Positions 16,079 through 38,902 are shown, counted from the stretch's first letter. The stretch: 64,000 bases of DNA from Candidatus Moraniibacteriota bacterium (GCA_003483065.1 DMWY01000018.1:8160-72159); one strand, 5' to 3'. Numbers and translations: made by a program. The notes: a model not told the origin generated them from the sequence alone.

Positions 16079-17710
16079 TCACATCTTTTCTGGAGAATTT
16101 ACTCCTAACAATCTGAGAACTTCTCCTAACACTATTCTAACAGCATTTATGAGGTTTAGTCTAGCGCTAGTTAGCTCTGGATTTTCATCATCTAGCACCT
16201 TGCAATCATTGTAAAAAGAATGAAATTTATCCGCCAATTTTATCGCATAATACGGCAATTTATGCACTTCATAACTTTCGGAAACATCCTCAATGATTTG
16301 CGGAAATTTGTCGAGTTCTCGAATTAAACTCAATTCTTTTTTATGAGTTAGTAATGACAAATCTACCTTATTCCTCCTCTCCTCTTGGGAGAGGATGTCC
16401 CGACAAAGTCGGGACAGGAGAGGGCTCTCTTTCACCTTCTCTAAGATACTACAAATTCTAGCGTGCGCATATTGCACATAGAAGACTGGATTTTTTTCAG
16501 ATCTTTCTTTTGCCAAACCAAGATCGAAAGTCATATGAGTGTTAGCATCATACATCAAAAAGAAAAATCGCACGGCGTCCAAACCAACTTCATCTATCAG
16601 CTCATCAATATATACAACATTCCCAGCACGCTTGCTCATTTTTGCTTCTTTGCCATCTTTCACAAGACGCACCAATTGCACAATCACAAACTTGAGTTCT
16701 CCCTTGAACCCAAGGGCTTCGGCTGCTGCGCGAAATCTCAAAATATAGCCATGATGATCAGCGCCCCAAACTTCAATTATTTTTTCAAATTTTCTGTCTA
16801 TTTTATTCAAGATATATCCACAATCCGAGGCAAAATATGTTTTTTGTCCGTCTTTTTTAACAAGCACTCGATCTTTGTCATCGCCAAATTTTGTCGTCTT
16901 AAGCCACATCGCTCCATCATTTTCAAAAGTTAATTCTTTCTTTTTCAATTTTTCAATCGCCTTATCAATATAGCCATCTTCATAAAGAGATTTTTCTGAC
17001 ATCCAGCTATCAAAATTAATTTTCATCTTTTCTTTGATTGTTTTTTTGATAATCTCATCCAGCACAATCTTGGCCGACTTTTCTCCAATTTCTTTGATAT
17101 CTTTTATTTTTGCAAATTTTTTATTCAATTGATCAATATATTCCCCGGAATATGCCGCCTCCTCATCCTTCAAAACACTGTGACCTAATTTGAGCAATTG
17201 CTCTCCAGCATCATTCACATAATATTCATTAACATTTTCATAACCCGCCTTTTCCAAAACTTTTCCAATCACATCTCCGAAAAATCCTCCTCGACCATTG
17301 CCCAGATGAAGCGGTCCAGTCGGGTTGGCAGAAATAAATTCATTGTTAACTTTTTTTCCTTTTCCAGTTTTGCCTTCGCCAAACTTATTTTCTCTTTCAT
17401 TTATCTCTCGAACTTTGTCCTGCAAATATTCTTTAGACAAATAGAAATTTATATACCCCGGTACAACAACTTCCACTTTCTCAAAAAATTGCTGTACGGA
17501 CAGGTCGCGACCTGTCCCTACCAAAAAATTTTTAATCTCCTCAGCTACTGTTATCGGATTTTTCTTGGCACTCTTACTCAAAACCATCGCCACATTAGTC
17601 GTATAATCACCAAAAGCTTCAAGCTTCGGATAGTCAACATCAACCTCACCTATTTCATAACCGAGGTCTTTCACCGCTTTTTCTATAAGTTTTTGAATTT
17701 CTTGTTTCAT
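16079..17710 (-). CDS. argS: Arginine--tRNA ligase
   Basis: N-terminal Arg-tRNA-binding domain, HIGH motif (PTGPLHLGNGRG), and C-terminal DALR anticodon-binding region. Carries the in-frame palindromic insertion at 16373..16424. Confidence 0.9.
   Translation of the reverse strand: MKQEIQKLIEKAVKDLGYEIGEVDVDYPKLEAFGDYTTNVAMVLSKSAKKNPITVAEEIKNFLVGTGRDLSVQQFFEKVEVVVPGYINFYLSKEYLQDKVREINERENKFGEGKTGKGKKVNNEFISANPTGPLHLGNGRGGFFGDVIGKVLEKAGYENVNEYYVNDAGEQLLKLGHSVLKDEEAAYSGEYIDQLNKKFAKIKDIKEIGEKSAKIVLDEIIKKTIKEKMKINFDSWMSEKSLYEDGYIDKAIEKLKKKELTFENDGAMWLKTTKFGDDKDRVLVKKDGQKTYFASDCGYILNKIDRKFEKIIEVWGADHHGYILRFRAAAEALGFKGELKFVIVQLVRLVKDGKEAKMSKRAGNVVYIDELIDEVGLDAVRFFFLMYDANTHMTFDLGLAKERSEKNPVFYVQYAHARICSILEKVKESPLLSRLCRDILSQEERRNKVDLSLLTHKKELSLIRELDKFPQIIEDVSESYEVHKLPYYAIKLADKFHSFYNDCKVLDDENPELTSARLNLINAVRIVLGEVLRLLGVNSPEKM
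16373..16424 (+). repeat. In-frame palindromic insertion element (PIE) copy A, inside argS
   Basis: cctcctctcctcttgggagagg atgtcccgacaaagtcgggacag gagaggg. Arms cctctcc/ggagagg plus an internal hairpin gtcccgac/gtcgggac. Encodes PLLSRLCRDILSQEERR within ArgRS with no stop. Confidence 0.75.
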
Positions 17711-17756
17711 AACTATATACTAACTCAACTTGCCCTTAAAATCAATATTTTCAAAA

Positions 17757-17790
17757 AAGCTTCAAGAAAATCTTGAAGCTTTTATTTTTC
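17757..17790 (-). terminator. Hairpin terminator downstream of Cys-rich secreted protein gene
   Basis: agcttcaag aaaat cttgaagct flanked by an A-run and ttttatttttc. Confidence 0.6.
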
Positions 17791-17813
17791 ATAGAATATT
17801 CCTAATATTTTTG

Positions 17814-18602
17814 CTAAAACAAACCCCCTAGCCAATTCATTATCCTTGCAAAAAATCCAACTCTTTCACACTCGCCATCAACAAGATTGTATCCGCCCTT
17901 GCAAACATACTCACATTTTGGTTCGTTTCCCTCGGGAACACTACAAGATTCAACCAATTCTTTCTTAGTGTAATAAAATACTTTTTCATCATCTTTTGGG
18001 CATAGTTCAGAATTTTTTGGCATTTCTCCAATGCAAGGAACTGTACTAATTTTTGAATCGACAGGCAAACCGATAAGTTCATTGTTTGAATTTTCGTTCC
18101 CCTTTGAATTATCTTGATTTTTAGAATTTTTATTCTGAGTTTGGCTATTGGCATTATTGCAATCGCGTGGCCAAGGCATTTTACACAAACCACTAAAATC
18201 CTCCATGCAATCCGCGAATGCTATCTTTGCGGTACAAAAATCTTTTTCATTAGAAATTTTATTATTACCAAACAGAAAGGCTCCTTGCTTATTATCACAC
18301 TCTTCATATTTAGCTAAGACTCTTTGAGAATAATCCCAACATTCATCTTCTTTTAAGGCACACCCTTCTAAGCATCCTCCTTTCACATAACCCCCTTCGC
18401 TGCTAGGACAAGAAACTTTACATTTATGCTCTAAATCAAGGCACTTATTAGCTTCTTCGGCAGCACAATCATGCATTTTATTAATAAATTCAACACCCGA
18501 GCCCGGAACAGCAGCAACAGTATAGAATGGTGAAAATAAAATAAAAAACGAAAAAAATATTTTTATCACTTTAATTTTTATCATATTATTTAGCTTGATC
18601 AA
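17814..18602 (-). CDS. Secreted cysteine-rich protein
   Basis: N-terminal signal peptide (KIFFSFFILFSPFYTVAAVPG), more than 20 Cys and a low-complexity N/Q/S linker. Confidence 0.5.
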   Translation of the reverse strand: MIKLNNMIKIKVIKIFFSFFILFSPFYTVAAVPGSGVEFINKMHDCAAEEANKCLDLEHKCKVSCPSSEGGYVKGGCLEGCALKEDECWDYSQRVLAKYEECDNKQGAFLFGNNKISNEKDFCTAKIAFADCMEDFSGLCKMPWPRDCNNANSQTQNKNSKNQDNSKGNENSNNELIGLPVDSKISTVPCIGEMPKNSELCPKDDEKVFYYTKKELVESCSVPEGNEPKCEYVCKGGYNLVDGECERVGFFARIMNWLGGLF

Positions 18603-19725
18603 TTTTTTTCTGTCCCTCGTTATATGCCTCCGCTATTTGATCTTCTATGCTTTTGTGCCTTTCATCATATTTATCACTGACATATTTTTGACATTCATCA
18701 GAGACTTCATTTCTTAAACGTATGCCAAGAGAAATATTGGTGCTTTCATTGCCAAGCTTGAGCGTACAAGAACTATGACTATTTGTCACTGAAATTTGGC
18801 TCATACTATTGGCATTTACCTTATTTATAGCGCAAGTAGCTTCCGACATTTTATTCATAACATTATTGAGCTCTTCTGAACTTCTCGCTGAATAATAAAC
18901 TCCGCCACCATTTTGGGAAATATTTTTGAGTTGACTTTCCGCTGTTCCGCCAACATTAAAACCGATGACATTGGTTATCAATTTTATATTATTACCGTTT
19001 AATTCTTTCGCTTTAGAAACTGGATTGCCACCACAAGTTTCTTCGCCATCACTAATTAGCAGGACTGAATTTTGATATTGATCTCCTGGATATTTCGCCA
19101 AAATATCACTAGCTTTTTGCAAAGAATCAGCTATTGGTGTCCAGCCAGTCGCTTGTAAAAGGGAAACTTTTGAAGTTATCACATCTAGCTTGATTTTATC
19201 CAACCAATAAATTTCTTCTATGCCGGCGCAAGAAACAGCTTTGTCGCTAGCACTATTACTTCCTTTGTGACCATAAGCAATAATGGAAACATTCACCTCT
19301 TCATTTAAATTTTTCACAAAATTCAAAGCCGCTTCCTTAGCAATTTCAATTTTAGATTTTCCACCAATTTTTGGTGCCATAGAACCAGAAGAGTCCAGAA
19401 TTAAAACTAAATTTTTCTTTTTGTTTGTATTATTTTTATTATCGCAAGTCGCTGTGTCCACCTTTCCATAACAATCCTCATATGTTTTTCCGTATTTGGA
19501 AATAAGCGCATCGTACTCAGCGTCACATTTAGTGTTATTAGAAAGATCTTGATTCTCCGCAGAAGCCGTATTTGTATCTGCCACCGGAGCTGTATTTTTT
19601 GCACTATTTATCTCAGGAGAAGTTTCGCTAGTCGTCTTTTGTTCTACAGTTGAACTATTTTTAGCTCCACAACCAGAAAAAATAATTACCGACGTTGCAA
19701 GTATTAGAAATAACATTTTTTTCAT
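18586..19725 (-). CDS. Lipoprotein with von Willebrand factor A (vWA) domain
   Basis: Lipobox LILATSVIIFSGC. vWA MIDAS motif LVLILDSSGSMAPKIGGKSKIEIAKEA. Confidence 0.7.
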   Translation of the reverse strand: MKKMLFLILATSVIIFSGCGAKNSSTVEQKTTSETSPEINSAKNTAPVADTNTASAENQDLSNNTKCDAEYDALISKYGKTYEDCYGKVDTATCDNKNNTNKKKNLVLILDSSGSMAPKIGGKSKIEIAKEAALNFVKNLNEEVNVSIIAYGHKGSNSASDKAVSCAGIEEIYWLDKIKLDVITSKVSLLQATGWTPIADSLQKASDILAKYPGDQYQNSVLLISDGEETCGGNPVSKAKELNGNNIKLITNVIGFNVGGTAESQLKNISQNGGGVYYSARSSEELNNVMNKMSEATCAINKVNANSMSQISVTNSHSSCTLKLGNESTNISLGIRLRNEVSDECQKYVSDKYDERHKSIEDQIAEAYNEGQKKIDQAK

Positions 19726-19767
19726 ATTTTTGTTTTTATCTTATAAAATAAAATTTTACTTTCTTAT

Positions 19768-19848
19768 TATACCATACACTTCCTCACCGGCCGGAAACTT
19801 TTTCGGTGGATTTCACAGGGGCCGTGTTTTTTGAGGGCGTCCATGTTT
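19768..19848 (-). repeat. Duplicated copy of the rnhB 3' end (encodes MDALKKHGPCEIHRKSFRPVRKCMV*), directly downstream of fic
   Basis: About 76 of 81 nt are identical to 20831..20911, which is the genuine rnhB C-terminus. Confidence 0.8.
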
Positions 19849-20771
19849 TATTTTCTATTCAAAATATCAAAACCACTAGTCACTGCATCACAGATGAAAT
19901 TTTCCAGTTGAGTGAAATCATTTTTGAGTTGCGCTGCCCGAAGATAGGCATAATATAATCGTTTGTTTTCTTGTTTTATCACGGCTGGAGCAATATTGCT
20001 CTTTAGAAACATTGCCACTAAAATCAATCTTCCAATTCGTCCGTTGCCATCAGAAAATGGATGGATTTGCTCAAATCTGGCGTGAATATCGGAAGCATGA
20101 CTAATTATATCTTTTGGTTTTTTATTTAAATCTACAAAAAGACTTTCCATTAATTTTGTAATCTTGAGATAATTCGCCGTTGGCACATTTGAGCCAACAA
20201 TTCGCACTCCGTGACGACGATAAATTCCAGCATCGTCTCTAATTCCATTCATTAGAATACTATGCAATTTCAAAACCAACGCCTCATCTATTTTTTTTAT
20301 ATTCTCTAATTGTCTAAAAAGATATTTCAAAGCCGTTTGATGATTTTTAACCTCAAATTGTTCCACTAAACTTTTGTCTGGTATTGTTCTGTTATTAAAC
20401 ATAATGTCAGCAGTTTCATCCTCCGACAAAGTTGACCCTTCTATTTTGTTGGAATTATAGGTAAGGGAAAGCATAAATTGATCACGGATGTCTGGATTTT
20501 TCGAAATAGTTCTCAGAATATTTTTATGCCTTGCTGATTCTTTGATAATCAATTCTTTTTTGGCCAATAAAACGGTTCCGGGAATTGTTTTTTGCCCAGT
20601 ATATTCAAGATACATCGCATCGATAGAATCTTGTTGTTTTTTTCTTGGCTTGGATTTTCCATTCCACCAATTATTGAGTGCCACAAAAGAAACGCCTATT
20701 TTAGCCGCCATTTTGGTCTGAGTGAGACCTGATAAATCCTGGATGATTTTTAGCTTATCTTTCGTATTCAT
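19848..20771 (-). CDS. fic: Fic/DOC family protein with N-terminal HTH
   Basis: Fic motif HPFSDGNGRIGRL (HPFx[DE]GNGR). N-terminal HTH (LSGLTQTKMAAKIGVSFVALNNWWNG). Flanked by roughly 80-bp direct repeats. Confidence 0.85.
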   Translation of the reverse strand: MNTKDKLKIIQDLSGLTQTKMAAKIGVSFVALNNWWNGKSKPRKKQQDSIDAMYLEYTGQKTIPGTVLLAKKELIIKESARHKNILRTISKNPDIRDQFMLSLTYNSNKIEGSTLSEDETADIMFNNRTIPDKSLVEQFEVKNHQTALKYLFRQLENIKKIDEALVLKLHSILMNGIRDDAGIYRRHGVRIVGSNVPTANYLKITKLMESLFVDLNKKPKDIISHASDIHARFEQIHPFSDGNGRIGRLILVAMFLKSNIAPAVIKQENKRLYYAYLRAAQLKNDFTQLENFICDAVTSGFDILNRK

Positions 20772-20829
20772 AAAGCTATTATACTAAACTTTATAAAGTT
20801 TGTCAATATTATAAGTTTTTATAAAGTTT

Positions 20830-21513
20830 CTATACCATACACTTCCTCACTGGTCGGAAACTTTTGCGGTGGATTTCGCAGGGGCCGTGTTTTTTGAGAG
20901 CGTCCATATGTATTTTTGTTCCATAGCCTTTATGCTGAGCAAAATTATATTCAGGATAAATTTTGTGCATTTCTTCCATCATGCGGTCACGCGTCACCTT
21001 GGCATAAATCGAAGCGGCGGAAATTGATTTGATCAGTTTATCCCCACTCACAATTGCTCTTTGCTCAAAAGAAAAGTTGGGAATTTTTTTGTTGCCGTCT
21101 AAAAGAATTATTAATTTAGAATTATCAAAATCTTGAATTTTAGTTTTCAATTGTGAAACCGCACTTTTCATCGCGAGAAAAGAAGCTTCCAAGATATTCA
21201 CCCGATCAATCGTCCGATGATCACAAATTCCCACTCCCACATGAAAATTCTCCCCTATAAAATCAAACAGGCTTTCTCTCTGTTTTTCCGAGAGCATTTT
21301 GGAATCGCGGATAAGATTGAATTTTTCCAAATCCTTCTCGCCCTTAGGGAGAGGATGTCGTGTACTCACGACAGGAGAGGGAACACGCAAAGCTACCGCA
21401 CACGCCACAACAGGCCCAGCCAGTGGTCCTCTTCCCACCTCATCAATCCCGATGATAATTTCATATCCTTCGGCGCTTAATTTTTCCTCTAACTCAAATG
21501 TTGACTTTATCAT
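20830..21513 (-). CDS. rnhB: Ribonuclease HII
   Basis: IGIDEVGRGPLAGPVVACAV...DSK RNase HII motifs. Carries the in-frame palindromic insertion at 21333..21381. Confidence 0.9.
   Translation of the reverse strand: MIKSTFELEEKLSAEGYEIIIGIDEVGRGPLAGPVVACAVALRVPSPVVSTRHPLPKGEKDLEKFNLIRDSKMLSEKQRESLFDFIGENFHVGVGICDHRTIDRVNILEASFLAMKSAVSQLKTKIQDFDNSKLIILLDGNKKIPNFSFEQRAIVSGDKLIKSISAASIYAKVTRDRMMEEMHKIYPEYNFAQHKGYGTKIHMDALKKHGPCEIHRKSFRPVRKCMV
21333..21381 (+). repeat. In-frame palindromic insertion element (PIE) copy B, inside rnhB
   Basis: ccttctcgcccttagggagagg atgtcgtgtactcacgacag gagaggg. Inner hairpin gtcgtg/cacgac is compensatory relative to copies C and D. Encodes RVPSPVVSTRHPLPKGE. Confidence 0.75.
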
Positions 21514-21648
21514 AAGATTATTATATCCTTAAATATACTTTTTTAACAGCCTGATTTAACATAATCGGCTTTAAAGAAAGTATATTTTTTATTCTTTTAC
21601 AACATTAAGTGGCAATAATGCCAAAAACTTTTCCTTTAAGGAGAAAAA

Positions 21649-21987
21649 ATGGTGAAAACAGAAAAAAAAGTAGCGGAAGAAAATAGTGGTAAAAAACTTA
21701 TCATTTTCATCTTCACTTTATTGTTTGCAATTGCAATAGTGAAGACAGTTCAATTTTCCTATAATCATTTAACAACAAATAAGGGGGTGGAGTTATATTA
21801 TTTACAAAATAAGGCCGCCCTGATTGAAAATGGAACGTTGGTCTTAAAAAAAATAACCGCCGGATTTAACAAGAAGATAGATGAGATATCAAAAACAAGG
21901 GAAAAGTATCCCGCCGGCGAACCCATTCCAAAAAAAATTGACCTCTGTAAAATAATTGCAGGAAAGGAGGTGATCCATGATCATTGA
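21649..21987 (+). CDS. Hypothetical small membrane protein (first gene of a two-gene module)
   Basis: 112 aa, one TM helix, AGGAG RBS. Stop overlaps the next start (ATGA). Confidence 0.5.
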   Translation: MVKTEKKVAEENSGKKLIIFIFTLLFAIAIVKTVQFSYNHLTTNKGVELYYLQNKAALIENGTLVLKKITAGFNKKIDEISKTREKYPAGEPIPKKIDLCKIIAGKEVIHDH

Positions 21988-22225
21988 TTTAAATAAGGGC
22001 GACGTGGTCAAATTGCCAAACAATATTACGGCGCGCCTATTCAACATCTTTACAATAACACCAAGGGAAGTCTCTTATATTTTGAAAGATGTTGCATCGG
22101 GAAAATTTTATCTAAGAATTTTCCAAAAAACAGACGAGGGCGTCAACCTAGAAGATTGCATAATAAATGTTGTGCCTAGCAAAAAAACACCAGCCTATTT
22201 TGCCATTTATCCATATAAGCGATAA
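21977..22225 (+). CDS. Hypothetical protein (second gene of a two-gene module)
   Basis: 82 aa, AAGGAGG RBS, followed by a strong terminator. Confidence 0.5.
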   Translation: MIIDLNKGDVVKLPNNITARLFNIFTITPREVSYILKDVASGKFYLRIFQKTDEGVNLEDCIINVVPSKKTPAYFAIYPYKR

Positions 22226-22239
22226 TGCACAAGCTCCCT

Positions 22240-22301
22240 CAGACAAATTCACTCAGCTCAACGAGCCGAATTTGTCTGGGGGCTTTTTTATTTCTAAAAA
22301 T
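22240..22301 (+). terminator. Strong rho-independent terminator (nested hairpin)
   Basis: ccctcagacaaattc actcagctcaacgagccg aatttgtctggggg followed by cttttttatttc. Confidence 0.75.
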
Positions 22302-22467
22302 TATGTTATACTCAAAACAAGAATAACTTCCCCTGCAAAACCCAAGGGTCATCCCGGGCTATGAGGAGAACAAAATCATATGAAAATAATTACACTATTT
22401 TTTAAAGTCTGGGCTAGCAATTAAATTTGACTAGTCTTTTATTTCGCTCAAATTTTATAACTTTTAA

Positions 22468-22557
22468 TTTTGTAATTTTTAAATAATACTTTAATTTCTA
22501 ATGTTTAAAAATTTAAGAATTAAGATTTATTTATAAAATTAAAAATTCAAAAATTAA
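22468..22557 (+). repeat. AT-rich roughly 95-bp repeat, copy A (immediately upstream of dnaE)
   Basis: aattttgtaatttttaaataat...ttctaatgttt aaaaat ttaagaa ttaagatttattta aaaattaa aatt. Near-identical to 61281..61377. Confidence 0.7.
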
Positions 22558-22566
22558 AAATTGCTT

Positions 22567-25500
22567 ATGCCAAAGTTCACTCACCTCCACGTCCACACTC
22601 ACTATAGTTTACTCGACGGTCTAGCTAAAGTCGATGAGATTCTTGATCGTGCCAAAGAACTTGGGATGGACTCTCTTGCCATTACTGATCACGGCGTACT
22701 TTACGGCGCCATTGAGTTTTATATCAAAGCCAAAGAACGCGGGATAAAACCCATCATCGGTTGTGAGATGTATCTGACATCTGGAGATTATTTGAGCAAA
22801 AATAACACCCGAGAAGACAAAACTCGCTATCACTTGATTTTGCTCGCCAAAAATGAAATCGGCTACAAAAATCTGATGAAACTAATTTCCGTGGCACACT
22901 TGGAAGGTTTCTATTATAAACCGCGAATCAACAAAGCACTTTTGCGAAAATATAGCGAGGGACTAATCGGACTATCCGCTTGCGCGCAAGGAGAAATTCC
23001 AGAAACCGTTATAAACGGAAAAATTGAAGATGCTGAGAAGCTAGCCCTGGAATATCAAGAAATTTTTGGCAAAGGTAATTTCTATTTGGAAATTCAACAT
23101 CATCCAAAAATGACTAACCAAAAAATTGCCAACGATGCGTTGATTGGAATTTCCAAAAAATTCGACATCCCTCTGGTCGCCACTAACGATATCCATTATA
23201 TAAACAAAGAAGACAACGTAATTCAAGATATTTTGCTCTGTATTCAGACTAACCGCAAAGTTACGGAAACTAATCGGATGAATTTTATGGATTTTGAGCT
23301 TTATCTCAAAAGCCCCGAGGAAATGGCTGAGCATTTCAAGGAAGTTCCGAAGGCACTATCAAACACTCAAGAAATTGTGGACAAATGCAATTTAGAAATA
23401 ACTCTCGGCGAAACTCAACTCCCTCATTTTGATGTGCCCGAAGGATATACGGCCGAAACATATCTTTTGAAAATTACCCAAGACGGTCTCAAAAAAAGAT
23501 TTGGTGAAAACATAACCGAAGAACATCGGCATAGAATGGATTACGAATTAGATATAATTCAAAAAACTGGTTTTGCATCATACTTTCTTATCGTGCAAGA
23601 TTTTGTAAACTGGGCCAAAGAGCAAGGCATCGTGGTGGGTCCAGGACGTGGCAGTGCGGCGGGAAGTTTTGTGTCCTATCTTATCGGCATCACTAACATC
23701 GATCCGATAAAATATGATTTACTGTTTGAAAGATTTTTGAACCCCGAGAGAATCTCCATGCCCGATGTGGATATGGACTTTGCTGACGACCGTCGAGATG
23801 AAGTTTTGGAATATGTCAGGCAAAAATATGGCAACGATCATGTAGCTCAAATTATCACTTTCGGAACTATGGCTGCGCGCGCGGCCATTCGAGACGCCGG
23901 ACGAGCTCTCGGACTCCCCTATGATTTTTGCGACAAAACTGCCAAAATGATTCCGATGTTTTCCACAATTTCTGATGCTCTGGAGTCAGTGAAAGAATTT
24001 AGTGATTTGCACAAAAATGATGAGGGTGGAAAAAAATTAATTGATAGCGCCTCACGCTTGGAAGGCGTCGTGCGTCATGCTTCGATGCATGCTTGTGGAG
24101 TGGTTATTACTAAAGAACCCGTGACAGAATATACCCCTTTGCAAAAAATCACTGGCAAGGGTGATGGCACCGTGACGCAATATTCCTCTTCAACTAAATA
24201 TAGTTTTGTAGAAAAAATTGGCCTCCTTAAGATGGATTTTCTGGGGCTAAAAAATCTCACCATTATCCAAAATGCTTTGAAAATTGTGAAAAAAACTTAT
24301 GGCCAAGATATTGATATCAACGACATTCCGCTAGAAGATGAAAAAACTTTCAAACTTTTGCAAGAAGCCAGAACTACGGGAGTGTTTCAATTGGAAAGTT
24401 CCGGCATGAAAAGATATTTGAAACTTTTAAAACCAAATGTTTTGGAAGACATCATTGCTATGGTGGCGCTCTACCGCCCCGGACCAATGGACTGGATTCC
24501 GGACTTCATTTCCAGAAAACATGGTGAGAAAGAAATCAAATATCTGCACCCTAATTTGAAACCAATCTTGGAAAAAACTTATGGCGTAGCGGTCTATCAA
24601 GAACAAGTTATGCAGATTGCTCAAGCTTTGGCTGGTTTCACGCTTGGTGAAGCGGATGTGCTTCGAAAAGCCATGGGCAAAAAAATCTTTGCGCTTATTC
24701 AGGAACAAAAACATAAATTCATTGAAGGCTGTATGAAGCAAGGCATCGCCGGCACGGTGGGCGAAAAAGTTTTTGCCTATATTGAACCTTTTGCGGGGTA
24801 CGGATTTAACAGAAGTCACGCCGCTTGCTATGCCTTGGTTGGATACCAAACAGCCTACCTCAAAGCACATTTTCCAGCCGAATTTATGGCGGCCCTGCTC
24901 ACTTCTGATCAAGACAACATCGATCGCGTGGCGATTGAAATTGCTGAATGTCGAGAAATGGGTATTGAGGTTTTACCACCTAATGTCAATGAAAGTTTTG
25001 AGCAATTTGCGGTTATAACAGACGCAGAAAATAATACTAAAAAAATTCGCTTTGGACTAAACGCCGTTAAAAATGTTGGCCACACTATTGCCCATGAAAT
25101 TGTGGAAGAAAGAAAAAGGAATGGAAAATTTTTGAGTCTTAATGATTTCATAGAAAGAGTGCGCCACAAAGATCTCAACAAAAAATCCATTGAGGCTCTT
25201 TCCAAAGTTGGCGCGTTAGAAGAATTTTCCGAAAGAAATTCCATCATCGCTTCCATTGAAAATATCTTGGCGCATTCTAAAAATATTGAGAAGCTCAAAA
25301 ATTCCAATCAGACCAGTCTTTTTGGAGACGCTGACATCAAATTACCACCGATAAAATTAGAAGTCTCGATAGAAGCTTCTAAAAAAGAGAAGCTAACTTG
25401 GGAAAAAGAACTTCTCGGACTTTATATTAGCGATCATCCCGTCAAAGACTATCAGGAATATTTTGAAAAAATGGCCTTGCCAATTCGAAACATTGGCGCA

Positions 25501-26118
25501 GAGTCAGTTGGGCAAATGGTGTCGGTGGGTGGGATAATTTCCAAGATAAAAAAGATTTTTCTCAAAAATCAAAAAACAATGATGTTTGTCACGCTGGAAG
25601 ATATGAATTCCACCATGGAAATTCTGGTTTTTCCAAAAGTTTTGGAAGCAACCGGATCGATCTGGCAAGAGGAAAAAATAATTTTGGCGAGTGGAAAAAT
25701 TTCTGACAAAGATGGTAGTTTCAAATTACTCTGCGACACAGTCAAGGTCGTCAACGAAAATGAATTGGAAAATTTCAAAAGAATTCTACACACCCAAAGA
25801 AACAACGGCGGTGAGCCTACAAAAAAATCCCTTCCCAATCCTCCTCTCCCCTCGGGAGAGGATGTCGCGTACTCGCGACAGGAGAGGGAGAATCTTAGTA
25901 AGTCTTCCAAACTCATCATCACCCTCCCACCAAATTTCGACAAAGCCATCCTCAAAAATCTTTCTTCCCTGTTTGATCGTTGCGAACTAGGCGCTATGAA
26001 AGTATACTTATCTATCAACAACTCAAAACTTGAAACACCCTATTGCATCCAAAATACCGCGGAACTCGAAAAAGCCTTGAAGATAATTGTGCCAGAAGGG
26101 AAAGTGGAGATTTGGTAG
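22567..26118 (+). CDS. dnaE: DNA polymerase III alpha subunit
   Basis: PHP domain N-terminus ([13 protein letters not shown]), polymerase core ([27 protein letters not shown]), OB fold. Carries the in-frame palindromic insertion at 25840..25888. Confidence 0.95.
   Translation: [1183 protein letters not shown]
25840..25888 (+). repeat. In-frame palindromic insertion element (PIE) copy C, inside dnaE
   Basis: cctcctctcccctcgggagagg atgtcgcgtactcgcgacag gagaggg. Encodes [17 protein letters not shown] near the DnaE C-terminus. Confidence 0.8.
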
Positions 26119-26722: not shown

Positions 26723-27277
26723 TTAGCCTATTTTCCTCACTTCTCCTCTTATCTTTTTATACTCCGGTACCATTTTTACCACGAGATTCCAAAAATCCCT
26801 GGAATGATTGAATTCGCCAAGGTGGCAGAGTTCATGGACGATTATGTAGTCGCAAAGTTTTTCGGAAAGATAGATTATCCGATAGCTGAAATTTAGGTTT
26901 CCCGATCTGGAACAACTCCCCCAGCGAGTCTTTTGATTGCGAATAGAAACTCGACCATATGAAAAACCATAGAACTCATTGAAATATTTCAATTTCTTTT
27001 CAGCGATTTCTCGCGCCAGCTTTTTATATTTCAAATAATCTTTTCTCGTTGCCGGTGGCAAAGCCGATTCCTTATTTTGGAAATGTTTTATCTTCCCAAG
27101 AATCCAATCCGCCTTTTCTCTCACAAACCTCATCGCAATTTCCTCACTGAGTCGCCACGGCACACTTACCACCAAAGTCGCATCATTTCTGATTGTGAGT
27201 CGCATGCACTTTGAACGTCGACTTTTTTTGAAAGTATATGAGATTCTTTCTTGATTTAATATTATTTCTTTTTGCAT
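26723..27277 (-). CDS. YgjP-like metal-dependent hydrolase (DUF45 / WLM-like HExxH)
   Basis: C-terminal IIVHELCHLGEFNHSRDFW zinc-metallohydrolase motif. Confidence 0.7.
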   Translation of the reverse strand: MQKEIILNQERISYTFKKSRRSKCMRLTIRNDATLVVSVPWRLSEEIAMRFVREKADWILGKIKHFQNKESALPPATRKDYLKYKKLAREIAEKKLKYFNEFYGFSYGRVSIRNQKTRWGSCSRSGNLNFSYRIIYLSEKLCDYIIVHELCHLGEFNHSRDFWNLVVKMVPEYKKIRGEVRKIG

Positions 27278-27376
27278 AAGGCTACAAAATTACAAAATTT
27301 TACAAAAATACAAATATACAAAAAATTACACTCAGATAAATTAATTATAGCAGGTATCTTGTATTTTGTATTTAAA

Positions 27377-27590
27377 CCCACCCTATAAAATAAAGAAAAA
27401 TAAATTGAGATTTTAGCGCGTTAAGAATTTACTCATCAGCGATTGACGGGGGCTTAGTAAATTTAGCGAAAAAATCGAAAATTTATTTCTTTATTTTATT
27501 TGGGTGGCCGCTTTCTTTTGTTACTTTTCTTTGAGGCAAAGAAAAGTAAGTGGAGAACTTTTTTTGGCTCGAGAGAAAAAGTACGAAGAA
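27377..27590 (+). repeat. Structured intergenic repeat family R200, copy 2
   Basis: cccaccctataaaataaagaaaaataaatt...aatttatttctttattttatttgggtgg form roughly 28-bp arms around the conserved core gcgttaagaatttactcat / ttagtaaatttagcgaaaaaatcgaaaattt. A second hairpin follows (ttacttttctttgaggcaaagaaaagtaa). Confidence 0.75.
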
Positions 27591-29175: not shown

Positions 29176-29230
29176 AAATATTTTTGCAAGTTAAAAACCA
29201 CAGCACTAGGCCGTGGTTTTTTATAATATT

Positions 29231-29315
29231 TGTCATCCTGAACTTGCCGTGCCTCGCCGGCAGGCGGGTTTCAGGATCTATTTTTTTAAGATGCTGAAAT
29301 AAATTCAGCATGACA
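29231..29315. repeat. MITE-like palindromic element, TGTCAT...ATGACA family 2, copy 2
   Basis: tgtcatcctgaacttg ccgtgcctcgccggcaggcggg tttcaggatct...gctgaaataaattcagcatgaca. Same outer sequence as copy 1. The GC-rich mini-palindrome sits in the first hairpin loop, not the second. Confidence 0.7.
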
Positions 29316-29319
29316 TCTT

Positions 29320-30235: not shown

Positions 30236-30369
30236 GAATTTTACATTACTATTATACCACAGAATTTAAAATTGACATTACTCCATTTTTACGCTAATCT
30301 ACATTTTCAAAAAGCTCCTCGTAAAATCACGGGGAATTAACCTTAATAGAAATTTAGGAGGTGGATACC

Positions 30370-30612: not shown

Positions 30613-30615
30613 TTT

Positions 30616-30662
30616 CCCCTTAGGCTTCCGAGAGAACATCTCGGGAGCCTAAAATTTTTTTT
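30616..30662 (+). terminator. Rho-independent terminator
   Basis: aggcttccgagagaacatctcgggagcct followed by aaaatttttttt. Confidence 0.7.
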
Positions 30663-30722
30663 AAATTGACATTCCTCTCATTTTTTGCTACCATAAGTTT
30701 TCAAATAATTAATGAATAATCT

Positions 30723-31799: not shown

Positions 31800-31806
31800 A
31801 AATATT

Positions 31807-34800: not shown

Positions 34801-35238
34801 ACTCTCATCATTCAATTCAACTCCTTCAAAAAAGCTATGATTGTGCTCATCACCCTGCCACTCGCCCTCATCGGCGTTTTCTATGGTTTGGCAATTTTCG
34901 GTGTCGCCCTTTCTTTCCCAGGACTAATTGGAATTCTGGCGCTTTTTGGTATCGTAGTGAAAAACGCCATTATTCTCATTGACAAAATAAACTTGAACAT
35001 TAAATTTGGTATTCCTTTTTATGATTCTATTATAGACGCCGGCAAATCTCGCCTAGAAGCCATTTTCATCACTTCCATCGCCACAATTTTTGGCCTCATC
35101 CCCATCACTCTTTCTGACGCCACTTGGATGGCGCTGGGCAGTGCTGTCATTTTCGGCCTAATGTTTTCTTCATTCTTAACCTTATTTGTTGTCCCGCTTT
35201 TATATGTCAGCTGGATTTCACAGAAAGAAAGATTTTAG
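31807..35238 (+). CDS. RND efflux transporter permease (AcrB/HAE1 family)
   Basis: About 1140 aa with 12 TM helices in a 1+5 / 1+5 arrangement and two large periplasmic loops. Typical AcrB C-terminal region. Translationally coupled to the adaptor. Confidence 0.85.
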   Translation: MNNKEIQESCPQNDSSLSSDSAYLEKLEFDPALKKTWLNFFVSNFRVVVLLIILLSSWGIYSFINLPLESNPEVKIPFAVVTTVFPGASPSDVEELVTKKLETAISGVKGIKKITSDSTNSFSAISVEFDTSENQDDALRNLKDRVATVKDLPEDANDPQTNEISFDSTPIFTFSISGNYDDFTLRTQAEKIKDELEKISGVQEVNIFGGDEKEFEIAYDPQKLTYYNITVGQANQVVASLNHIFPGGNFEGEKFNYPVSVDGRFFNAEKLGNIPLTHIQNGNILYLKDVAKVSEKSIKKTIYSRLSINGQEPQSAVTVSLVKKTGGSIVDIVDEAKKVIATQLETFPPGTTYQITTDFSEIIRKDFKQLTHDFVLTLILVFGILFLIVGLKEAIVAGLAIPLVFFATFGVMVQTGISLNFLSIFSLILSLGLLVDDAIVVVSATKQYLKTGKFTPEEAVLLVLRDFKVVLTSTTLATTWAFLPLLLSTGIIGSFIKSIPITVSVTLISSLIIALAINHPLAAVLERIRLTKKFFFVIEFFLLAIFASLIYFGGFWNYLFGAIFAFIFLWLMHWYEKGGEEKLESNKILAEKEWYDDDLIKLKLKTQGESKDMSFASRLIHGIIHFDKVIPIYEKYLRMAICTKKRRTIVLFATALLFISSVLLPIFGIVPMEFFPASDENNLYINVEKAVGLNLDETDKTVQELERRLLNYKEIINFSTVTGKQGASPSGGGDFSSGSSNKASITITLSDKEAREITSYDLAKKIRDDFSNIQEADITVESAQGGPPSGSAFEAQIIGDDLQELDRVANELKPILASISGVVDIKSSLKDAPAQYTFLLDPIKLAFHNLSAPNVGTTIRTAISGTEISTIIEDNKEISINARFDEKKIPTLETIQNLEITNSNGQPIFIKDVAKVELKPSVDTITRIDQKRAVVLSAGVEGGVRSNEVVAQFQKKLKNDYVLPEGYVITYGGENEQNAESVLSIIRAMAIAGILIVSTLIIQFNSFKKAMIVLITLPLALIGVFYGLAIFGVALSFPGLIGILALFGIVVKNAIILIDKINLNIKFGIPFYDSIIDAGKSRLEAIFITSIATIFGLIPITLSDATWMALGSAVIFGLMFSSFLTLFVVPLLYVSWISQKERF

Positions 35239-35289
35239 AATTTGACCTTTTGCAATTTTTGTATATAATATAGATGAAGCCTTGATGCG

Positions 35290-35456
35290 ACCCCACCAAC
35301 CGCGGAGCTTCCGCCCAAAGTTAGCGATATAACTTTTCAAAGAGCGCCCAAATGATATGGGAATTCGAGTGGAACCGTCCTAAGATAATAGGACCTCGAA
35401 ATCTAATATTATTTTGGTGCTTTTTTATTTTTAATAATTAAATAAATTTCAAATTT
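35290..35456 (+). promoter_or_regulatory. Structured thrS leader, weak T-box candidate (Thr ACC specifier?)
   Basis: Promoter-like ttgcaa...tataat at 35255..35280. Leader contains TGATG (GA motif), ccccACCAacc (ACC followed by A) and GGGAATTCGAGTGGAACCGTCC, a partial match to the T-box core with a UGGA bulge. No clean terminator. Confidence 0.3.
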
Positions 35457-37217
35457 ATGTCAAACAAAAAAACCACTCCTAACGATTTAGACATCCTTCG
35501 CCACTCAGCATCACACGTAATGGCATCAGCAGTCCTCGAAATGTTTCCAGAAGCCAAGTTTGCTATTGGCCCCTCCATTGAAAACGGCTTTTATTATGAC
35601 TTTGAGCTTCCACGAACTCTCATTCCAGAAGACTTGGAAATTCTTGAAGAAAAAATGCGAGCCATCATCAAGGCCAATCACCCTTTTGAACGTGCAGAGA
35701 TTTCTTTTGCAGATGCGCTAAAAGATTTCAAAAAAGCTAACCAACCCTACAAAGTTGAGCTTATCAAAGATCTTGAAAAATCCCAAGAAACTAATAAGCC
35801 ACTAAACCAATTAACTATTTACAAATCCGGAGTTTTTGTCGACCTCTGCAGTGGCCCACATCTTGAATCAACCGGAGAAATTCCAGCTGACGCCTTCAAG
35901 CTCACCAAAATCTCCGGTGCTTATTGGCGAGGTGATGAAAAAAATAAAATGCTTCAAAGAATTTATGGTGTGGCTTTTGGAAGCAAAAATGATTTGAAAG
36001 AATATTTGCATATGATTGAAGAAGCGGAAAAAAGAAACCATGTTAAATTAGGAAAGGAACTCCGATTATTTTCTACTCACATTGAAGGACCGGGTTTTCC
36101 ATTTTTTCATCCAAAGGGAATGATAGTTTGGAATGAGCTTATCAAGTATTGGAAAGAAGAACATACAAAAGAGAATTACCAAGAAATAAGCACGCCAATT
36201 ATTCTCAATCGAACTCTTTGGGAAAAAAGTGGCCACTGGGATCACTACAAAGATAATATGTATTTTACCAAAATTGATGAAACTGATTATGCGGTGAAAC
36301 CTATGAATTGCCCAGGAGGAATTTTAGTTTACAAATCCGATATGCATAGCTACAAAGAATTACCTCTTAAGTTAGCGGAGATTGGCCTCGTCCATCGACA
36401 TGAACTCTCCGGAACCTTAAATGGACTTTTTCGAGTGCGTATGTTTCGACAAGACGATGCTCACATCTATTGCATGGAGAATCAAATCAAGGATGAGATA
36501 ATTAAACTGACAAAAATGATTGAACGAATTTATAAAACTTTTGGATTGTCATATCATATGGAACTATCCACTCGACCAGAAAATTCAACCGGTACGGACA
36601 AGATATGGGAACAAGCTGAAAATGCCCTGAAGGATGCTTTGAATGAAATGAAAGTTGATTATAAACTAAATCCGGGAGATGGAGCTTTTTACGGACCAAA
36701 AATAGATTTTCATATTAAAGACGCTATTGGCAGAACTTGGCAATGCGGAACAATTCAGCTTGATTTTTCAATGCCGGAAAGATTCGATTTGACCTATATC
36801 GGCGAAGATGGCAAAGAACATCGACCCGTAATGCTTCATCGGGTTATTTATGGCGCAGTAGAGCGCTTCATGGGAATTCTTATTGAACACTATGCCGGTG
36901 CCTTCCCTCTTTGGCTCTCCCCTGTGCAAGTAGCAATTTTGCCAGTCAGTGAAAAGTTTGAAAAATATGCCAAAGATGTAGAGACGCAATTTATTGCCTC
37001 TGGTATTCGTGTGGAATTATATAACCAATCCGAGTCACTCGGCAAAAGAATTCGCGAAGCCGAAAAGCAAAAAATTCCATATATGCTCGTAGTCGGAGAA
37101 AAAGAAGAAGCCGACAACTCTGTAGCTGTGCGCTCCCGAGGAACGAAAGATCAAGAAGTTATGAAAGTAGAAAATTTTGTTGAAAAAATTATCGCAGAAA
37201 TTAAGGAGAAGAAATAA
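35457..37217 (+). CDS. thrS: Threonine--tRNA ligase (short form lacking N-terminal TGS domain)
   Basis: Editing/second-addition domain HSASHVMA, class II core (RVRMFRQDDAHIYC, GPKIDF), C-terminal anticodon-binding domain. Confidence 0.9.
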   Translation: MSNKKTTPNDLDILRHSASHVMASAVLEMFPEAKFAIGPSIENGFYYDFELPRTLIPEDLEILEEKMRAIIKANHPFERAEISFADALKDFKKANQPYKVELIKDLEKSQETNKPLNQLTIYKSGVFVDLCSGPHLESTGEIPADAFKLTKISGAYWRGDEKNKMLQRIYGVAFGSKNDLKEYLHMIEEAEKRNHVKLGKELRLFSTHIEGPGFPFFHPKGMIVWNELIKYWKEEHTKENYQEISTPIILNRTLWEKSGHWDHYKDNMYFTKIDETDYAVKPMNCPGGILVYKSDMHSYKELPLKLAEIGLVHRHELSGTLNGLFRVRMFRQDDAHIYCMENQIKDEIIKLTKMIERIYKTFGLSYHMELSTRPENSTGTDKIWEQAENALKDALNEMKVDYKLNPGDGAFYGPKIDFHIKDAIGRTWQCGTIQLDFSMPERFDLTYIGEDGKEHRPVMLHRVIYGAVERFMGILIEHYAGAFPLWLSPVQVAILPVSEKFEKYAKDVETQFIASGIRVELYNQSESLGKRIREAEKQKIPYMLVVGEKEEADNSVAVRSRGTKDQEVMKVENFVEKIIAEIKEKK

Positions 37218-37231
37218 ATATTCATTATTTT

Positions 37232-37450
37232 CCCCCACCCCATAAAATAAAGAATTTAAATTGAGATTTTCGAGCGTTAAGAAATTCCTCATCTTCGCTC
37301 GATGTACTCATCGAGCCTAGGAATTTTAGCGAGAAAATCGAAAATTTATTTCTTTATTTTATTTGGGTGGCCTTTTTCTTTTTTGCCACTTTTCTTTTGG
37401 GAAAAGAAAAGTGGCGAGGAGTTTTTTGAGGCAAAGAAAAAGTAAGAATA
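37232..37450 (+). repeat. Structured intergenic repeat family R200, copy 3 (between thrS and miaB)
   Basis: ccccaccccataaaataaagaatttaaatt...aatttatttctttattttatttgggtgg with the conserved core and a second hairpin gccacttttcttttgggaaaagaaaagtggc. Ends 6 nt before the miaB ATG. Confidence 0.75.
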
Positions 37451-37456
37451 GAATTT

Positions 37457-38902
37457 ATGAAATACCACATCAAAACATTTGGTTGCCAGATGAACATTTC
37501 AGATAGCGAAAGAATTGCTAGCTTTTTGGAGTCGCAAAAAATTAAACCAACCGAAGAAATAACAAAAGCTGATTTGGTTATTTTTAATACTTGTGGAATA
37601 AGACAGATGGCTGAGGATCGTGTTTATGGACAAATACATAATATCAGAAAACAAGAATCAATGATCAATGATCAACAAAAAAAGAAAACTATTATTCTCA
37701 CCGGATGTTTAGCTAATCGAAAAGATGTGCAGAGAAGATTGAAAAATAAGGTTGATTTGTTTTGTGAGATTAAAGATTTTCAAAAGGAATTTAGAAATTG
37801 GATAATTGGAAATTATTTGGAAATTGGAAATTGGAAATTGGAAATTCCGGCACAACAAAAAAACACGCCATGCTCAGATTATTTATCCATCAACCCCAAA
37901 TACAATAATTCGCATAGCGCCTTCGTGCCGGTTATGACCGGTTGCAACAATTTCTGTTCCTATTGCGTTGTGCCATACGCCAGAGGACGCGAAGTTTCAA
38001 GGCCTTCAAAGGAAATAATTATGGAAATAAAAAACCTGCTCAAAAATGGTTGCAAAGAAATAATTCTTCTTGGACAGAATGTGAATTCTTATCAGCATAT
38101 GCCCTCTCCCCAACCCTCTCCCGATTACGGGAGAGGGGGTAATTCCAATCCTTCTCCCCCTTTGGGGGAGATGTCGCGTACTCGCGACAGAGAGGGTGAC
38201 GTTGTAAATTTCCCCAAACTCTTGCAACTCATCGAAAAAATTCCCGGCCATTTTTGGATTTCTTTTATGTCTAGCCACCCGAAAGATTTTTCTTCGGAAT
38301 TAATTGAAACAATTGCGAAATCGAAAAAAATATGTGAGCATATCCATCTCCCCTTGCAAGCTGGAGACGACAAGATTCTTTTAGCAATGAATCGAAAATA
38401 CACCGCCAAAAAATATTTAAACCTAGTAGCAAAAATAAAGTCCGCTTTCGCTAAATATAAACCCAATAAATTATATTCCATCACCACCGATATAATTGTC
38501 GGTTTTCCCGGAGAAACAAAAAAACAATTTCTTGAGTCGGCGTGCGTCATGAAAAAAGTCGGCTATGATCTTGTCTATTTTGGCCAATTCTCTCCCCGCC
38601 CAGGAACTGTTGCTTTTAAAATGAAAGATAATGTTTCCAAAATCGAAAAAAAGAAACGGGAATTTTTTCTCAATGAAATCCTAAAAGAAACTGCTCTTGG
38701 AAATAATCAAAAATATCTTGGAAAAATTTTGGAGGTTCTCATTGATAAAAAGGAAGGTGCTAATTATTTCGGCCGAACTCACTCATTAAAAAATGTGAAG
38801 ATTATTTCCACACAGAAAAATTTGGTCGGAAAATTTGTAAAGGTAAAAATAACCAAAGCTAATATTTGGAATTTGGAAGCTTCTCTTTACATAAAGCCAT
38901 AA
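37457..38902 (+). CDS. miaB: tRNA (N6-isopentenyl-adenosine) methylthiotransferase MiaB-like radical SAM enzyme
   Basis: MTTase N domain (KTFGCQMNISDSE), radical SAM CxxxCxxC (GCNNFCSYCVVPYARG), C-terminal TRAM domain. Carries a tandem double in-frame palindromic insertion at 38102..38196. Confidence 0.85.
   Translation: MKYHIKTFGCQMNISDSERIASFLESQKIKPTEEITKADLVIFNTCGIRQMAEDRVYGQIHNIRKQESMINDQQKKKTIILTGCLANRKDVQRRLKNKVDLFCEIKDFQKEFRNWIIGNYLEIGNWKLEIPAQQKNTPCSDYLSINPKYNNSHSAFVPVMTGCNNFCSYCVVPYARGREVSRPSKEIIMEIKNLLKNGCKEIILLGQNVNSYQHMPSPQPSPDYGRGGNSNPSPPLGEMSRTRDREGDVVNFPKLLQLIEKIPGHFWISFMSSHPKDFSSELIETIAKSKKICEHIHLPLQAGDDKILLAMNRKYTAKKYLNLVAKIKSAFAKYKPNKLYSITTDIIVGFPGETKKQFLESACVMKKVGYDLVYFGQFSPRPGTVAFKMKDNVSKIEKKKREFFLNEILKETALGNNQKYLGKILEVLIDKKEGANYFGRTHSLKNVKIISTQKNLVGKFVKVKITKANIWNLEASLYIKP
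38102..38196 (+). repeat. In-frame palindromic insertion elements (PIE) copy D, two tandem units inside miaB
   Basis: ccctctccccaaccctctccc gattac gggagaggggg...ccttctccccctttgggggag atgtcgcgtactcgcgacag agaggg. Encodes MPSPQPSPDYGRGGNSNPSPPLGEMSRTRDREGD between the radical SAM and TRAM domains. Confidence 0.8.

Follow-up and report, generated by a model that had tools for sequence, protein, structure and literature searches.

A two-hairpin palindromic repeat lies in frame in essential genes of a Moranbacteria genome and accompanies DUF559 genes elsewhere

Copies of the repeat in the window

The DNA analysed here, a stretch of 64,000 nucleotides from Candidatus Moraniibacteriota bacterium (GCA_003483065.1, DMWY01000018.1:8160-72159; hereafter the window), belongs to a groundwater Moranbacteria genome of the candidate phyla radiation (CPR) and carries a two-hairpin repeat of about 50 nt that lies in frame within four essential genes and whose relatives accompany small DUF559 genes in other genomes. 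As assigned by Pfam, the four host genes encode the arginyl-tRNA synthetase ArgRS (16079-17710, minus strand), RNase HII (20830-21513, minus strand), the DNA polymerase III alpha subunit DnaE (22561-26118, plus strand; the true start is probably the ATG at 22567) and a MiaB-type radical-SAM methylthiotransferase (37457-38902, plus strand). An initial annotation of this DNA had placed the repeat in argS, rnhB, dnaE and miaB, had reported that it introduces no stop codon, and had listed compensatory variants of its inner stem; all four sites are present at the coordinates given below, the four open reading frames (ORFs) are intact and uninterrupted, and the variants gtcgcg/cgcgac, gtcgtg/cacgac and gtcccgac/gtcgggac all occur among the window copies. 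An assembly artefact is unlikely, because 15 contigs from independent assemblies, of which a 75-kb Rifle groundwater scaffold is the longest, encode the identical RNase HII, and because the MiaB protein of the window is 100% identical to one in an NCBI Candidatus Moranbacteria metagenome-assembled genome (MAG).

From 5′ to 3′, a unit of 49-52 nt consists of a pyrimidine arm CCTCTCC(C), a loop of 3-5 nt, GGGAGAGG, one A, the second hairpin and, after a G, the third arm GAGAGGG. The second hairpin is built from four outer pairs, TGTC/GACA, followed by 3-5 variable inner pairs and a loop. Since the outermost arms, CCTCTCC and GGAGAGG, are inverted repeats of one another, two alternative folds are available: either hairpins 1 and 2 form side by side, or the 5′ arm pairs with the third arm and encloses hairpin 2. 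Within the 64 kb, GGAGAGG occurs seven times, always inside the elements, and the 13-mer GGGAGAGGATGTC exactly three times; allowing up to two mismatches, the latter finds five matches compared to 0.74 expected. Folding as DNA and as RNA, a check that the annotation had named, lies in both cases well beyond shuffled controls (z = -3.1 to -7.7 and -2.2 to -8.1, respectively).

In ArgRS, the copy occupies 16373-16424 on the plus strand, with the arm CCTCTCC at 16376-16382, GGGAGAGG at 16387-16394, an inner hairpin with the stem CCCGAC/GTCGGG at 16395-16416 and the third arm GGAGAGGG at 16417-16424; its minus-strand reading gives SPLLSRLCRDILSQEERR in the first loop of the DALR anticodon-binding domain. 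The copy in RNase HII (21333-21381, plus strand) has an imperfect first hairpin (CCTTCTCGCCC) and the inner stem GTG/CAC, and is read on the minus strand as PSPVVSTRHPLPKGEKD (residues 45-61), between strand 35-42 and helix 59-67 and ahead of the DSK motif. Near to the family consensus, with the inner stem GCG/CGC, is the copy in DnaE (25840-25888, plus strand), whose plus-strand reading yields PPLPSGEDVAYSRQERE (residues 1094-1110), 3′ of the OB fold. The MiaB site (38102-38196, plus strand) holds two units after LLGQNVNSY. Unit 1 (38102-38139, plus strand), CCCTCTCC-CCAA-CCCTCTCCC-GATTAC-GGGAGAGGG, has three arms but is devoid of the second hairpin and equals the plain reverse form of the module found downstream of DUF559 genes; unit 2 (38150-38196, plus strand) is a diverged two-hairpin unit, CCTTCTCCCCC-TTT-GGGGGAG-ATGTCGCGTACTCGCGACAG-AGAGGG. 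The full inserted segment (38093-38206, plus strand) measures 114 nt and replaces 15 nt (ATTGATGGAAAAAAT, encoding IDGKN) of the empty allele. Insert-junction peptides predicted from the reading frames are ALRVPSPVVSTR, HPLPKGEK and NSYQHMPSPQPSPDYGR.

Compared to solved homologs in the PDB, the inserts appear as gaps of 17 residues in RNase HII, about 30 in MiaB, where the B. uniformis protein has a 2-residue turn, and 13 in ArgRS; for the DnaE copy there is no gap comparison, as the PDB homolog alignment of the C-terminus ends before the insert. The AlphaFold prediction for the RNase HII of the window has a mean predicted local distance difference test score of 87.5, and its sole segment below 50, residues 46-54, lies within the insert. 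These gaps and the RNase HII model suggest that the insertion points fit the folds of the host proteins, being located in surface or variable loops.

The repeat family, its reading frames and its turnover

The annotation had proposed that further copies be sought, within and between genes, in related genomes. A search of 185,579 species-representative genomes, its pattern specifying no more than the flanks of hairpin 2 (GAGAGGATGTC, 8-14 free bases, GACAGGAGAG), yielded 104 matches, genic as well as intergenic, in 92 stretches. Most of them belong to MAGs of Candidatus Moranbacteria or further Parcubacteria, a single related MAG containing some 8-12 strict copies by a tally of the match listing (for example PCRW01, JAURXY01 and CACYKF01); a second subfamily is found in rumen and horse-gut MAGs, and single or few copies in Peregrinibacteria, Phycisphaerales and Betaproteobacteria. 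About four of the 104 matches look like chance occurrences with unpaired inner sequences, and nearly all others carry the 5′ hairpin, which the pattern left unconstrained. No match was found among 2.9 million viral contigs.

Pairing is maintained where sequence is free to vary. In the free inner segment, 28 of 42 distinct sequences have at least three nested pairs from the ends and most of the others two, the expectation for random 10-mers being 5%. Across 37 distinct copies, hairpin 2 displays 36 double-sided changes with 98.6% of cells paired, a score reached by none of 500 shuffles; its two most variable stem positions are occupied by GC/CG/AU/UA and CG/GC/UA pairs, and TGTC/GACA is paired in all 37. 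Hairpin 1, the 3′ arm of which was fixed by the search pattern, shows no covariation in the same copies. The annotation had concluded that selection acts on the folded nucleic acid rather than on the peptide, and the maintained stem, the use of six frames and the conservation of the DNA while the peptides differ support a constraint on structure and not on peptide; the covariation itself, however, could also have arisen mechanistically, through correction of palindromes or swapping of cassettes, and not by selection.

ORFs of at least 150 residues contain 40 of the 67 low-GC copies (60%), in both orientations and all three phases and hence in all six classes, with the proviso that orthologous sites do not count as independent. 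None of the six frames of the canonical element contains a stop codon, and one and the same DNA is thus read, depending on the frame, as LLSLRERMSRTRDRRG, PPLPSGEDVAYSRQERE, SSSPFGRGCRVLATGEG, PSPVASTRHPLPKGEEE, LSCREYATSSPKGRGG or PLLSRVRDILSQRERR. Further hosts identified by Pfam are DnaG, LigA, UvrD/PcrA, LeuRS, GluRS, KsgA, Pth, MiaA, UppP and an RlmN-like radical-SAM protein. Compared to the 79% expected for random placement in the same loci, a genic fraction of 60% means that genic copies are depleted (p = 4e-4), which fits the outcome of purifying selection against most genic insertions. The plus orientation common to all four window copies, with host genes on both strands, had also been pointed out in the annotation; the observation is correct, but with four copies such agreement lacks statistical significance (p = 0.125).

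Among close relatives, the sites are variably occupied. The DnaE site is filled in four genomes, and in L099 (comparison sequences are denoted by L numbers), whose protein is 95% identical, the site lacks 27 nt and its right half has decayed towards AT, that is, half of it is deleted. L101 and L102, both close relatives, have no insert at the ArgRS site, and three genomes carry the element at the RNase HII site. For MiaB, a 91%-identical ortholog and several others show the empty state (NSYIDGKN-NFPK), and the tandem insert is common to two more distant orthologs. One could argue that the segments are ancestral or selected parts of the proteins, or shared low-complexity coding, instead of inserted DNA, given that each is in frame and that orthologous copies are common to several species; the annotation had itself named this as what would overturn its view. 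However, the same DNA is read in six frames as unrelated peptides, orthologs of 91-95% identity have empty sites, distant homologs lack the segments, and in the RNase HII model the insert is a low-confidence loop. The ortholog alignments, which the annotation had put forward as a check, thus contradict an ancestral origin, to which we assign hardly any probability.

Repeated palindromes in frame within unrelated housekeeping genes are the hallmark of the Rickettsia palindromic elements (RPEs; Ogata et al. 2000, reviewed in PMC10969869), and the likeness to them noted in the annotation holds: both are palindromic families found in many unrelated housekeeping genes at fold-compatible positions, genic as well as intergenic, in a small AT-rich genome. 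Compared by description rather than by sequence, the present element differs in its length of about 50 nt as opposed to about 100-150 nt, in its Moranbacteria/Parcubacteria hosts, in its three arms and second hairpin, in the use of six frames, in orthologous copies that are held near the consensus instead of simply decaying, and in its association with DUF559. The annotation had further regarded such behaviour as undescribed for this kind of lineage. In the literature searched we found none linking CPR or Patescibacteria with RPEs, with repetitive extragenic palindromic (REP) sequences or with transposable elements of the miniature inverted-repeat type (MITEs), and the core 13-mer only in unrelated papers; the kind of element, however, is known outside Rickettsia. 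Short hairpin repeats of the GTAG/CGTC REP super-families, which include RPE-4 and RPE-6, occur in dnaE, DNA ligase, uvrD and tRNA-synthetase genes, where they add 20-30 residues, and CGTC REPs have no known dedicated transposase (Di Nocera et al. 2013, PMC3733652). Unlike these, our element has no unpaired GTAG or CGTC tag, its TGTC being base-paired in hairpin 2, and its stems are GC-rich without AT first pairs; its form is fixed, with two hairpins and three arms, as opposed to a lone imperfect palindrome of 20-40 bp or a head-to-head dimer, and its copies are mostly genic (60%), whereas REPs are predominantly extragenic.

Orthologous copies are conserved well above the neutral, four-fold degenerate sites of the same gene. 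For DnaE, the element of the window is identical at 54 of 54 positions to that of L084 (four-fold sites: 71%), at 52 of 54 to that of L078 (69%) and at 51 of 54 to that of L101 (60%), and for RNase HII at 50 of 51 positions to that of L037 (61%); the MiaB insert is about 97% identical to that of L184, with 79-90% in the gene body. The differences between orthologous copies mostly amount to a swap of the entire inner hairpin. Such conservation is what a DNA signal of benefit to the host would show, its arms acting as a DNA-uptake signal, as a site for a nucleoid, recombination or replication protein, or as a pause in transcription or translation: 50-54 of 51-54 element positions are unchanged, compared to 60-71% of four-fold sites, copies persist at orthologous sites across species, and CPR bacteria rely on DNA uptake. 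Yet copies are polymorphic for presence and absence even between identical strains, decay or are deleted in close relatives, are depleted in genes relative to random placement, and are sparse, at about one per 16 kb in the window; a simple sequence signal would not be expected to have a free, covarying inner stem, and the link to a gene for a selfish-type nuclease, described below, points the opposite way. We consider a host signal distinctly unlikely.

How presence and absence are exchanged can be seen at MiaB. Contig L183, from the same aquifer but a different sample, is 100% identical to the window over 35634-37933 (2.3 kb) and 38334-39534 (1.2 kb), and between these stretches, at 37999-38251 around the MiaB insert, lies a recombination (conversion) patch with 34 mismatches and a 99-nt indel. 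Comparison with two further alleles indicates that the patch of L183 is the foreign one, and a homing-type gain at this site was rejected, the flanks pointing to the empty allele as the import. Whichever the direction at MiaB, presence and absence of the element are exchanged by short-patch recombination. A second divergent patch separates window 35334-35633 from L183 1-300, with 96 mismatches and a 6-nt indel in the 5′ end of the ThrRS gene and its upstream spacer; located at the end of the L183 contig, in DNA that is otherwise 100% identical, it is possibly another recombination tract.

The same loops also hold other repeats. Depending on the lineage, those of RNase HII and MiaB contain the element, the element in another frame, a repeat-derived peptide of the AT-rich NFQFPISNFQ, the CHPELVSGS or the PSPxGRGxGEG type, or nothing. 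At the RNase HII site, the hairpins of four close relatives are unrelated in sequence and perfect over 14-17 bp (z = -5.5 to -10.7); L100 has a fifth one at its ArgRS site, perfect over 21 bp (z = -7.3). The RNase HII position aligned to 21333-21381 is occupied in L099, L100, L101, L102 and L028 by a different perfect palindrome or AT-rich repeat each, such that a hairpin of some kind seems always to be present in this loop, but not the same one twice. Among them, CAAGGTTCGACCTT recurs in another genome at the ArgRS site and therefore represents a family of its own.

DUF559 genes and the three-arm module

In L080, a cluster of copies surrounds an ORF of 116 residues that matches Pfam DUF559 (E = 9e-39). 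By profile search, 11 loci selected by the element contain DUF559 ORFs, whereas some 180 kb of other sequence contain none. The loci span Moranbacteria, Peregrinibacteria, gut MAGs and Phycisphaerales, and in all but one of the 11 (10 loci) the element lies at most 110 nt from the DUF559 ORF. Typically, it is located 28-82 nt upstream on the same strand (7 loci), and an inverted copy or variant follows 20-40 nt after the stop codon. No transposase was seen beside clustered copies, the neighbours being ABC-type permeases in L053 and DUF559 in L080, although no systematic search for REP-associated tyrosine transposases (RAYTs) was made.

As these first DUF559 loci had been selected by the element, we turned the test round and examined 80 metagenome loci picked solely for their homology to DUF559 (46-76% identity). 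In nearly all of them a more general form of the module, CCCTCTCC-loop-GGGAGAGG-spacer-GGGAGAGG/GGGTGAGGG, lies upstream, and downstream there is its reverse complement. A generic three-arm detector, permissive and hence controlled by the background rate, reported the module upstream in 48 of 76 loci (63%), inverted downstream in 43 of 78 (55%) and on both sides in 32; elsewhere in the same loci the rate is 0.012-0.014 per 150 nt (about 1.3%), corresponding to an enrichment of about 45-fold on either side. In L103, L106 and L107, the spacer of the module contains an extra hairpin, which is the form found in the window. Going beyond the initial annotation, the element is thus a subfamily of a cross-phylum module that brackets DUF559 genes. 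In 27 of 57 loci (L103-L182, L009, L015, L043, L093), the third arm is positioned 4-14 nt before the first in-frame DUF559 start codon; judged from its sequence and spacing, the third arm of the upstream module probably constitutes the ribosome-binding (Shine-Dalgarno) site of DUF559, and the CCTCTCC arm could pair with either the third arm, sequestering it, or a decoy arm. In this setting, the upstream copy thus resembles a 5′ leader.

DUF559 profile matches comprise PDB entry 3HRL (9e-31), the PADLOC homing-endonuclease model (1.6e-4), Vsr (2e-3) and 3R3P, the catalytic domain of the mobile-intron homing endonuclease I-Bth0305I (5.6e-4). To our knowledge, this very large family has no assigned function. 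We found no literature linking DUF559 with repeats, as far as titles and abstract openings tell, and the association appears to be undescribed.

The arrangement resembles that of the REP/REPIN-RAYT systems, in which a short palindrome is dispersed and a single small gene is bracketed by inverted copies, and by analogy this layout most plausibly reflects how the present system would work; here, however, the bracketed gene encodes a Vsr-like PD-(D/E)XK nuclease of the DUF559 family and not an IS200/IS605-type Y1 transposase. With MITEs, the element shares terminal inverted repeats, namely the outer arms CCTCTCC/GGAGAGG; as for the parental element that a MITE presupposes, the DUF559 units do carry the same ends, but DUF559 is not a known transposase. 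With homing endonucleases of the Vsr-like/EDxHD type (I-Bth0305I, PDB 3R3P; E = 5.6e-4), DUF559 shares the catalytic fold, and as in homing elements a short tract is exchanged that comprises flanking markers as well as the insert or its empty site; in contrast to these, the window copies have no nuclease gene and no intron or intein context, and the resolved tract looks like a loss. In fungal mitochondrial genomes, double-hairpin elements are likewise very short mobile two-hairpin units in coding and non-coding DNA, but they are organellar and unrelated in sequence, and we know of no nuclease gene described with them.

A further likeness is to an RNA. No Rfam family reaches its gathering threshold in the window, but the elements give full-length, sub-threshold alignments to whalefall-1 (RF01762; gathering score 37), with 27.8 bits for L103 and 12.1 for the DnaE copy, covering model positions 1-56 and both helices. 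The whalefall-1 consensus, CUCUCC-loop-GGAGAG-ACAGA-hairpin-UCAG-GGUGAGG, shares the architecture of the element: it has the same order of parts, with two hairpins and a purine-rich tail complementary to the 5′ arm. Whalefall-1 is described as a presumed non-coding RNA, found only in whale-fall metagenomes and without gene association (Weinberg et al. 2010, PMC2864571). The match in L103 (1410-1461) falls on the module upstream of the DUF559 gene; two more lie in L080, at 100-169 and, just beyond the DUF559 stop codon, at 497-567, and another in L160 (1126-1194). The copies could accordingly be regarded as structured RNAs of the whalefall-1 type, either small RNAs or cis-regulatory leaders, a view to which the common architecture with its purine tail and the strong folds as RNA lend weight, as does the third arm upstream of DUF559, where its Shine-Dalgarno-like placement makes an RNA role plausible. 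The elements differ, however, in scoring below 37 bits, the DnaE copy reaching 12, and in being DNA repeats within ORFs and beside DUF559; the window copies are sense in two genes and antisense in two, and relatives use six frames. Thus, an RNA function may apply upstream of DUF559, but not to copies within ORFs on both strands, and as an account of the family it is very unlikely. Conversely, the whalefall-1 "RNA" may be a DUF559-associated DNA repeat or leader.

The reading that we favour, and that we hold to be moderately probable as a whole, is a selfish REP/RPE-like repeat that derives from the ends of DUF559 mini-elements and is tolerated in the surface loops of proteins. Its parts differ in strength: that the element is a selfish repeat tolerated in loops is very likely, and that DUF559 is the driver falls slightly short of an even chance, the association being observed and mobilisation by the nuclease being what we infer. 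In this scenario, the element would be a non-autonomous, selfish palindromic repeat behaving like REPs, MITEs and RPEs, and would represent one subfamily of a cross-phylum module whose inverted terminal copies bracket small DUF559 (Vsr/homing-endonuclease-like) genes. The unit [module]-DUF559-[inverted module] would be the minimal selfish element, and solo modules its non-autonomous derivatives, which would have spread across Moranbacteria/Parcubacteria genomes; genic copies would persist solely at places, such as surface loops, where 13-33 additional residues do no harm to the host protein, helped by the absence of stop codons in all six frames. The DUF559 nuclease would recognise the conserved arms and nick, and repair or gene conversion would then copy or homogenise the modules, such that copies would be kept near the consensus and be gained or lost via short-patch recombination. 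Recognition of the arms by DUF559 would account for the conservation of the arms across phyla, the free inner stem and the conserved orthologous copies alike.

Alternatively, the repeats could spread by other means, such as an unseen RAYT-like or other transposase or the formation of palindromes by template switching, and merely serve as landing pads for a homing-type DUF559 gene that preferentially inserts in or beside them. DUF559 does resemble homing endonucleases, the inverted modules bracket it as if a palindromic dimer had been split, and the several unrelated palindrome families at the same protein-loop hot spots suggest that hairpins are generated or targeted independently of DUF559. 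However, such a target would be a forward-plus-reverse dimer, and solo copies are single modules; the conservation of the outer arm across phyla along with DUF559 is more easily explained by recognition through the protein, and no transposase was seen beside the clustered copies. We regard this alternative as unlikely, though less so than a host signal.

Several observations weigh against the selfish, DUF559-driven repeat. Conservation above neutral sites could reflect a host function. No target-site duplication is present at the MiaB filled/empty pair, where 15 nt are replaced and not interrupted, unlike in MITEs; nor was a clean insertion junction seen, those of ArgRS and DnaE not being cleanly alignable. 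The MiaB event itself is best read as a loss, an empty allele having been imported in place of the element. The window contains no DUF559 gene, and it offers no orthologous locus for an empty-site comparison of a whole DUF559 unit; we know of no demonstrated transposase or homing activity of DUF559. Around the 80 protein-chosen loci, the two-hairpin core, strict or relaxed, was found in only one, so that the DUF559 link rests on the generalised three-arm architecture and the 10 element-selected loci. Finally, the bias of orientation with local GC skew across relatives is weak (43:24, at non-independent sites); replication-strand bias was therefore rejected as a sign of IS200/IS605-type transposition, and single-strand, replication-coupled transposition gains no support from it.

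A more far-reaching proposal, which we put forward as rather doubtful, holds that three-arm hairpin repeats form a cross-phylum superfamily to which DUF559 proteins are dedicated as nucleases, including whalefall-1 and the common PSPxxGRGxGEG-coding hairpins. This would be a second partnership of the REP-RAYT kind, built on a Vsr-type nicking enzyme that would recognise the CCTCTCC/GGAGAGG arms as a hairpin or cruciform; repair of the nicks would copy and homogenise the repeats by short-patch gene conversion and continually remodel surface loops of essential CPR proteins.

Protein-coding selfish palindromes, long seen as a Rickettsia curiosity, would with the favoured reading extend to the CPR, into replication, repair and translation genes of supposedly streamlined genomes. 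DUF559 offers a testable partner gene, and short REP-like repeats such as the CGTC type are without a known mobilising enzyme. In practical terms, proteins appear longer owing to the inserts, spurious peptides of low complexity arise from them, and metagenome assemblies break where patches vary between strains; CPR genome annotation and binning should allow for them.

Other repeats of the window and the ArgRS neighbourhood

The ArgRS proteins of L037, L100, L101 and L102 are only 42-46% identical overall to that of the window, with nearly identical DNA around the element site; the same neighbours are otherwise close to the window, with DnaE 86-94% (L100-L102) and RNase HII 82-92% identical. 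From this pattern of sequence identity, ArgRS in the window's lineage appears to be a mosaic, or to have been replaced. The ArgRS copy of L099 has a 21-nt GC hairpin (CCTGCCTCGCTGGCAGGCGGG) nested within the element, and a near-identical hairpin lies in the loop of another palindrome (TGTCATCCTGAAC...GTTTCAGGATC) at the intergenic window position 29228-29282; these two cases indicate that small hairpins insert into other hairpins.

MiaB contains, in addition to the element, an AT-rich repeat of the TTGGAAATTGGAAA type in frame at residues 112-130 (window 37790-37837), which encodes FRNWIIGNYLEIGNWKLEI. Related AT-rich repeats are located at 22450-22560 and 61242-61363, and the same type gives rise to NFQFPISNFQ in many RNase HII orthologs. 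An intergenic repeat of about 200 nt is present three times (2985-3190, 27383-27590 and 37239-37460; 77% column identity), with one copy just upstream of MiaB; it ends in a terminator-like hairpin, GTTACTTTTCTTTG-AGG-CAAAGAAAAGTAA, and has no Rfam match. A hairpin pair of another widespread type, TGTCATTCCCGTGAAAACGGGAATCC and GATTCCTGCTTTCGCAGGAATGACA, lies between genes at 42034-42129. Several intergenic spacers contain short heptamer arrays (TACAAGA / TCTTGTA) and related ACAAAAT repeats, on both strands (11855-11890, 43651-43698, 54106-54139, 27276-27341 and 53584-53672). Between a glycosyltransferase gene and ArgRS, at 15962-16074, there is a 34-nt inverted repeat rich in TTACGAATTACGAA, and a similar motif follows the DUF559 unit of L015.

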